From Eledone cirrhosa (lineage: Eukaryota), in contig CAXHJY010001543.1 of NCBI GenBank assembly GCA_964016885.1, forward strand, positions 1 through 64,000: a DNA stretch of 64,000 nucleotides, read 5' to 3'. Under the pieces are notes generated by a model. It saw only the letters and a program-made list of their open reading frames with translations, had not been told where the DNA came from and searched no databases. A program made the position numbers and the translations under genes. Positions 52,934 to 53,496 of this stretch are shown piece by piece (within the stretch, counting starts at the first letter, position 1; each line of letters opens with the position of its first letter).

Positions 52934-53496
52934 AAAAAATGGGGAGAAGAATACTGCATGGTTGCACATGGATAACATGTTATAAAATGAGTCCCTCATC
53001 AGTGATTTGCCAACGATCATAGATATTTCATTGCATTAAAAATCATATACCTCACGTTGGTGCAATAATAACTAAATTAAGTTATTAGGACAATTAAAAC
53101 GCGTAAAGCGAGTGAGACAAGTAAACAACAAAGAGGAAAGCTAACCGTAGATAGGAAGAGACACAAGCTACATAGTTATTCTATCAGTATAAGCTGGGTG
53201 ACTATATGAGCGAGTAGAAAATAGACCTTTCGAGATGAATCCAATGTAAGAAAGAAGGAAATCGTTTTCGTCGCGAACGGGGTGAAGTGAGAAGGGGAGA
53301 AACAGTGAGTGAGTGAGTGGAAGTGTGAGGAAGAGGTCAGTAGAGAGAAAGTGTTAACTGACATGACAGAGGGGACGAAAGAAAGTAAGAGAAACAGAGA
53401 GAACGAGGGAGCAGTAAGAGAGAGAGAGAGAGAAAAACAGAATCTCAGTTTAGGTAAATATATGTGAAAAAATGGGGAGAAGAATACTGCATGGTT
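52931..53496 (-). mobile_element. Non-coding element R533: 533-bp monomer + 33-bp terminal repeat, relative of R627
   Basis: GTGAAAAAATGGGGAGAAGAATACTGCATGGTT at 52931 and 53464; shares motif blocks with 23734-24360. Confidence 0.85.
52988..53092 (-). ncRNA. Candidate non-circularly permuted hammerhead ribozyme (diverged variant)
   Basis: AGGUAU-A-UGAUUU ... U-GAA-AUAUCU ... AAAUCA-CUGAUGA-G-GGAC. Confidence 0.75.

Follow-up and report, generated by a model that had tools for sequence, protein, structure and literature searches.

A probable leader-paired hammerhead ribozyme of S-G-C block order in a high-copy non-coding repeat of Eledone cirrhosa

The window, a stretch of 64,000 nucleotides from Eledone cirrhosa (contig CAXHJY010001543.1), carries at 52931..53496 a copy of a non-coding repeat of ~530 nt. 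This copy spans about 1.07 units and has a 42-nt terminal repeat and a (TA)n end. A structured motif lies within it on the minus strand, at 53092-52991. The features of this copy and of its sister copies are given below; counts out of 175 refer to the distinct rows of an alignment of genomic copies, and p values to simulations on its tree.

52931..53496, minus strand: whole element copy (also given as about 53496-52931), delimited by BLAST to 20 genomic loci, the self-match at 53496-53455 and the sequence
53092-53088, minus strand: UGUCC, read from the sequence
53088..53091, minus strand: leader strand a, GUCC, with its partner GGAC at 52994-52991; the outer pair is G-C in 133/175 and A-U in 32/175 rows
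53066..53087, minus strand: leader hairpin b, with arms UAAUAACU (53087-53080) and AGUUAUUA (53073-53066) and a U-rich loop between them; 4 extra Watson-Crick pair types, p=0.01
53065-53061, minus strand: UUGCA, read from the sequence
53062..53065, minus strand: leader strand c, UUGC, with its partner GCAA at 53034-53031; 96% paired, one compensated position
53055..53060, minus strand: leader strand d, CCAACG, with its partner CGUUGG at 53015-53010; 7 extra Watson-Crick pair types, p=0.004
53052..53054, minus strand: non-bulged strand of a predicted kink-turn, U3n G2n A1n; G.A in 162/175 and A.G in 156/175 rows
53040..53051, minus strand: block S, with the stem III 3' strand GGUAU, A17 and the stem I strand UGAUUU; predicted cut at 53046/53045 (AGGUAU 53052-53047, A17 53046, UGAUUU 53045-53040, then UUAA)
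53022..53035, minus strand: block G, with strand c', an unconstrained U, GAAA and the stem III 5' strand, from sequence and alignment (UGCAA 53035-53031, U 53030, GAA 53029-53027, AUAUCU 53026-53021, then AUGAU)
53016..53021, minus strand: bulged strand of the predicted kink-turn, a 3-nt bulge U A U followed by G A U, from alignment counts and the definition excerpted from PMC5061560
52991..53008, minus strand: block C, with the stem I strand AAAUCA (53008-53003), CUGAUGA (53002-52996), a variable nucleotide (G 52995) and GGAC (52994-52991); a C separates CGUUGG from AAAUCA; stem I has 6 extra pair types, p=0.004
24530..24631, plus strand: second-subfamily ribozyme copy, the short inverted arm of a head-to-head insertion, from sequence
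23784..23885, minus strand: full ribozyme, the long arm of the same insertion, from sequence
24448-24411, minus strand: 5'-truncated partial copy, 627 nt upstream of the ribozyme at 23885-23784, from sequence

The window thus holds three full copies of the motif and one partial copy. Read 5' to 3' at 53092-52991, the cleavage block is followed by GAAA with stem III and then by stem I with CUGAUGA, an order abbreviated as S-G-C. The core elements CUGANGA, GAAA and UH are conserved, and stems I and III flank the site. All segments listed in a first-pass annotation of this DNA were found at their minus-strand positions letter for letter, and the copy at 24528 and each substitution listed between it and the copy at 53092-52991 are exactly as claimed. 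What that annotation called a diverged second family is one subfamily within a continuum. Its proposal that direct stem II is absent, and that a multiway junction forms by pairing of the 5' leader to the strands that follow CUGAUGA and precede GAAA, is borne out.

A conventional type I, II or III fold within one unit was considered and rejected, as there is no complementary stem II. Helix c likely occupies the position of stem II, an assignment favoured since its Naiad equivalent closes, by eye, on the C that precedes GAAA. For this helix a fifth pair was likewise dropped, being canonical in about half of the rows. Stem III had been drawn with a sixth pair; this is A-U in only 76/175 rows, so that stem III has 5 bp and its outermost position fits the kink-turn. 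A nearly invariant UAA (window 53038-53036, alignment columns 57-59) lies in the linker that joins stem I to helix c; AA is present in 175/175 rows, and UAA is seen again in the available cnidarian Naiad ends. It likely makes a tertiary contact.

The motif is carried by a very abundant repeat. In the 3.0-Gb genome of the species itself, a spaced pattern of the core matched 11,109 times and its reversed control once, and a pattern that leaves the core free put the family at no fewer than 12,787 copies, with a single match for its control. More than 11,000 copies keep the same block spacings, 16 and 23 nt. Over a stretch of 121 nt, no fewer than 40 copies match the one at 53092-52991 exactly, which indicates a young family. 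There are 96 tandem units of 493-679 nt, with one hammerhead per unit; they are 65-71% pyrimidine, and their longest ATG frame is 170 codons. An Rfam scan of the window returned no hammerhead among the best 150 of 360 matches, nearly all of which were microsatellite-driven miRNA models. Outside the genome, a metagenome pattern scan gave at least 119 matches, all of them consistent with chance; among the matches listed, none had the full six-pair stem I and the best nhmmer E was 0.079. Four contig sets of one study, whose library type is unrecorded, contain many variants of the repeat.

Selection on the fold was assessed in an alignment built from 320 motif hits in fetched loci, of which 303 had a recognisable leader and 175 were distinct. 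These rows come from one genome, mostly from contig C1, were picked for variety and are enriched in variants; the patterns that retrieved most of them hold the core constant. On branches leading to at least three rows, helix changes comprised 13 double, 28 wobble-keeping, 9 restoring and 14 breaking events, and on tip branches 2 double, 90 wobble-keeping, 8 restoring and 140 breaking events. Pairing was therefore kept or broken at 50:14 at the subfamily level against 100:140 in single copies (Fisher p=2e-7; two-row branches, with 10 keeping or restoring and 16 breaking changes, were excluded from this comparison). In 500 tree simulations, the null gave a mean of 7 and a maximum of 14 extra Watson-Crick pair types, and 19 were seen. 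New pair types were significant for helices b, d and I, and not for helices a, c and III taken alone (p=0.42, 0.57 and 1.0). All six helices were paired more fully than in the simulations (p 0.002-0.028). In a tree-aware G-test over 5,151 column pairs, proposed pairs made up 7 of the top 10, of which helix d supplied 5, and no single pair reached E<0.05 (best 0.15-0.28). Among 26 hand-picked copies, 97% of cells pair, compared with 27-48% when the partners are slid, and both sides change in 17/33 pairs. G-U and A-C states on the minus strand numbered 15 and 5. Nested minimum-energy folds, which cannot score pseudoknots, form b, d and stem III and leave stem I and c unformed.

The motif is a real, selected structure: helices b, d and I covary, and variation is found at the free positions 17, 7 and after A9. 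The tree-aware aggregate tests and the slid-partner control uphold the earlier claim of selection for the propagating lineages, and breakage of the helices at the neutral rate was not observed in this larger, one-genome alignment. An alternative account attributes the covariation to the ancestry of repeat subfamilies and to CpG mutation, with no selected structure. It draws on the small number of independent events, on the lack of any individually significant pair and on helix c, where the single change amounts to CpG transitions in both strands; compensation is found at one position each in helices a (GUCC/GGAC) and c (UCGC/GCGA), and stem III shows wobble changes only. The aggregate tests speak against this account, as do the transversion swaps seen in helices d and I and the recurrence of the same wiring, in unrelated sequence, in published Naiad ends of other phyla as judged by eye. 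It is largely refuted already, and we regard it as highly improbable.

The core varies where a hammerhead would be expected to tolerate it and is otherwise fixed. At position 17, A occurs in 11,109 copies and C in 1,440, with G or U in another 129 that are scattered; the patterns behind these counts differ slightly. At the subfamily level this position is A or C, and G is avoided; AUA is described as a natural hammerhead cleavage site in the text drawn from PMC1636495. Among the first 100 copies listed for the pattern that leaves the core free, which include one out-of-register row, N7 is C in 13 and other core positions change at most 3 times (hand count). N7 alone varies recurrently within the core of block C. 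Any of the four nucleotides can follow CUGAUGA, and in 20/175 rows the nucleotide at this place is deleted; an unpaired nucleotide is known at the same place in the hammerheads of Penelope-like elements (PLEs) (PMC4209133). The invariance that had been claimed for UA and GUCC/GGAC holds between the two window copies and fails genome-wide, where UC occurs in 1,440 copies and AUCC/GGAU in 32/175 rows.

Canonical hammerheads retain G10.1-C11.1 (PMC4209133). Here, the nucleotide preceding GAAA can pair to the one that follows CUGAUGA in 117/175 rows and to the adjacent leader nucleotide in 42/175, and to neither in 46/175; the pair is thus optional. A constant 10.1-11.1 pair was rejected: canonical in 117/175 rows, it is replaced by C.A, A.A or A.C mismatches fixed in whole subfamilies, and the earlier claim of this pair gives way to one that is not obligatory.

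Stem III continues into a standard kink-turn sequence, in which a 3-nt bulge and then the pairs G.A and A.G separate two helices. Both sheared pairs occur together in 146/175 rows. The sole subfamily deviation, in 11 rows, is U at 2n, which PMC5061560 gives as the commonest natural substitution at that position. By bending helix d backwards at the end of stem III, the kink-turn would bring it into contact with stem I and helix c, and this contact would take the place of the usual one between loop I and loop II. This kink would bring helix d to the end of stem I, which otherwise lies far from the end of stem III.

The predicted site at 53046/53045 on the minus strand is upheld as a prediction. 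The junctions of inserted copies show an excess there in one subfamily that is not clearly repeated in a second. In the subfamily of this copy, 5' junctions without microhomology numbered 12/51 at the site against 2/36 and 0/13 at control positions (hand counts, with 5 indel rows dropped from 18; p=0.036 and 0.008), and several of the 12 carry one odd nucleotide. In the second subfamily, for which 100 of 163 rows were counted, microhomology-free junctions are equally frequent, with 3 each, at the site and at the two positions that follow it. The weakness of this footprint, together with the reading of most copies through the predicted site, would suit a fold that acts as a protein-binding scaffold, such as a kink-turn RNP or a loading site for reverse transcriptase, and cleaves little or not at all. 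The conserved kink-turn sequence and the dispensable 10.1-11.1 pair point the same way. A pure scaffold, however, would not need fixed catalytic nucleotides, and these are fixed, with only positions 7, 17 and the one after A9 varying and G avoided at 17. We consider a scaffold unlikely. The motif is probably the self-cleaving hammerhead of a non-coding Penelope-type retro-repeat (retrozyme), with an S-G-C core paired to its leader and a predicted cut at 53046/53045.

In the mechanism that we propose for this hammerhead, the transcript of tandem copies would fold with leader strand c standing in for the absent half of stem II, and at the A9/G12 end of the core a four-way junction would be completed by helices a and b. 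Cleavage at 53046/53045 would release monomers of 490-680 nt, which may be re-ligated into circles. A Penelope-like reverse transcriptase-endonuclease, primed on (TA)n, could then copy these circles into (TA)n tracts. Copying past the junction would leave copies that end 10-70 nt behind the ribozyme and would form partial tandems, and this read-through anatomy fits a circular or multimeric template.

Cleavage could instead take place only between copies, with tandem units swapping strands to build the hammerhead in trans as a dimer. Tandem and inverted copies are indeed common, and dimers are the active form of the minimal type I hammerheads found in animal PLEs and in retrozymes, dimeric action being established for PLE (PMC4209133) and amphibian (PMC7229834) hammerheads in the sections of these papers drawn on. 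The present motif is built differently, with a full 5-bp, non-palindromic stem III, and helices c and d together with the kink-turn bind the three blocks locally. The fixed spacings of 16 and 23 nt between blocks contrast with the 490-680 nt that separate units. Obligatory dimers are therefore improbable, more so than the scaffold, and folding within one unit is preferred.

The genomic arrangement of the repeat is that of a Penelope-like insertion. Copies are arranged in tandem or head-to-head and end in (TA)n. At the 3' end, (TA)4 follows within 140 nt of the ribozyme in 224/290 distinct copies, and opposite-strand neighbours are head-to-head in 61 cases and tail-to-tail in 8. The 226 5' junctions are with (TA)n (84), an inverted copy (82), other sequence (56), fragments of PLE ORFs (3 fusions) and the element itself (1). 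The repeat thus shows 5' truncation, partial tandems, inverted 5' copies and (TA)n targets, and the same marks are described for Penelope-like elements in PMC8557442.

In the ten loci read for PLE ORFs near copies of the repeat, these ORFs are either separated from it by (TA)n or fused to it head-to-head. Three direct head-to-head fusions join a 5'-truncated repeat to a 5'-truncated PLE ORF (L022:2187, L062:1618 and L063:1432). The fused ORFs are of two different kinds, which we take from their motifs to be Neptune-like and Poseidon-like, and other PLEs may thus now move the repeat. Pfam named RVT_1 as the only domain, in 1/4 PLE-like ORFs. The Neptune-like PLE carries its own type I hammerhead (3' ends in L079 and L120), and a minimal type I hammerhead matching these ends lies in the window at 17610-17640 (+). 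An ORF with an N-terminal GIY-YIG and a C-terminal reverse transcriptase attached to the repeat was absent from the loci examined. A search with Naiad-like motifs gave 1 unrelated match and no autonomous element with this ribozyme, and a topology scan of 810 kb of loci from the same genome gave 270 hits, all to the same repeat family.

Other small elements in the window include tandem 135-bp units at 63640-64000 (-) with classical type I hammerheads (CUGAUGA at 63964, 63829 and 63694) and a short palindromic stem III; these units are an ordinary non-LTR retrozyme. An inverted pair at 15675 (-) and 16046 (+) has CUGACGA, a short hairpin and GAAA and is possibly another hammerhead family. ORF fragments at 51143-51940 (-) and 18361-19065 (-) presumably correspond to the ends of non-LTR retrotransposon proteins, which they resemble.

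A link to Naiad elements comes from their published 3' ends. In the excerpted text of Craig et al. 2021 (PMC8557442), Naiads have no canonical hammerhead, some being marked 'core' or 'half core', and this lack is taken to mean that PLEs can dispense with hammerheads. In the part of the published supplement consulted, the 3' ends before the headers Naiad_Ovul and Naiad_Omin show, by eye, the same block order, with stem I CUGCCC/GGGCAG, helix c GACACC/GGUGUC, helix a UUCC/GGAG and helix d; they also carry the U-rich hairpin loop and the kink-turn strands of the present motif. Five more Naiad passages, three of them near-identical, have by eye the same a-b-c wiring in unrelated sequence. The motif likely shares ancestry with Naiad 3' ends, and the predicted ribozyme is likely the one that Naiad retrotransposons were thought to lack.

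These parallels lead to a wider proposal, to which we give somewhat better than even credence. The motif would represent a hammerhead class beyond the six block orders considered possible, a four-part ribozyme in which half of stem II comes from the leader by way of a four-way junction on the catalytic core, clamped here by a kink-turn. It would be the general ribozyme of Naiads across animal phyla and the parent of high-copy circular-RNA retrozymes missed by type I searches. If this is true, hammerheads of non-circularly permuted order move from environmental RNA into animal chromosomes, in more than ten thousand copies, and the core block can be split by a junction. It would also bear on the inference drawn in the cited passages of Craig et al. 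2021 that PLEs manage without hammerheads, and retrozyme surveys with type I descriptors would overlook whole families.

Compared with Naiads as excerpted from PMC8557442 and its supplement, the repeat has in common the (TA)n targets, 5' truncation, partial tandems, inverted 5' copies and a short tail. Several published Naiad 3' ends combine, by eye, an a-b-c-d leader with the S-G-C order, and those of Octopus have the hairpin loop and the kink-turn strands in common with the repeat as well. Naiads encode GIY-YIG and a reverse transcriptase, whereas the repeat encodes neither. In Naiads, helix c closes with G-C directly on GAAA, and the same pair is loosened here. The cephalopod Naiads are described there as old remnants, while the repeat is young.

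Animal non-LTR retrozymes, as presented in the extracts of PMC7229834 and bioRxiv 10.64898/2026.07.22.740005, share with the repeat non-coding tandem units of low GC with one hammerhead each, and have likewise been proposed to be non-autonomous PLE derivatives. However, they have a type I hammerhead and units of ~300 nt, in contrast to the permuted core and the units of 490-680 nt described here. The standard kink-turn, as defined in the section of Huang and Lilley 2016 (PMC5061560) drawn on, is here placed inside a hammerhead, as predicted from sequence; a literature search on kink-turn, hammerhead and retrotransposon together gave no relevant report.

The closest known relatives in block order are type-SGC hammerheads. 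According to the available part of Eckert et al. 2023 (PMC10085705), type SGC is a non-circular permutation that cleaves in vitro and has been found only in metatranscriptomes, with no example in the genomes of known organisms. A search of titles and abstract openings, largely outside subscription journals, gave no description of the present wiring or of an SGC hammerhead in an animal genome. The motif has in common with HRIMA-1 and its variant, as far as these are depicted in that part, the S-G-C order and the full core. In both, a short linker connects stem I to the strand preceding GAAA, CUGANGA is followed by an additional nucleotide, and a helix begins immediately 5' of block C. In the scheme given there, stem II is direct, joining the strand that precedes GAAA to the one that follows CUGANGA, and a stem I-II helix arises from pairing between the two flanks of block C. 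Here, direct stem II is absent (at most one inconstant pair), both of its strands are engaged by the leader, and the flanks of block C have leader strands d and a as their partners. This wiring means that a link assumed by Eckert et al. to be unbreakable, either A9 to 10.1 or 11.1 to G12, must open. The sources differ as well, a metatranscriptome in the one case and a high-copy animal repeat with a kink-turn sequence in the other. The motif would work like a type-SGC hammerhead, yet we do not file it as a member. The order of the blocks is already known from type SGC; the new features are the leader scaffold and the host.
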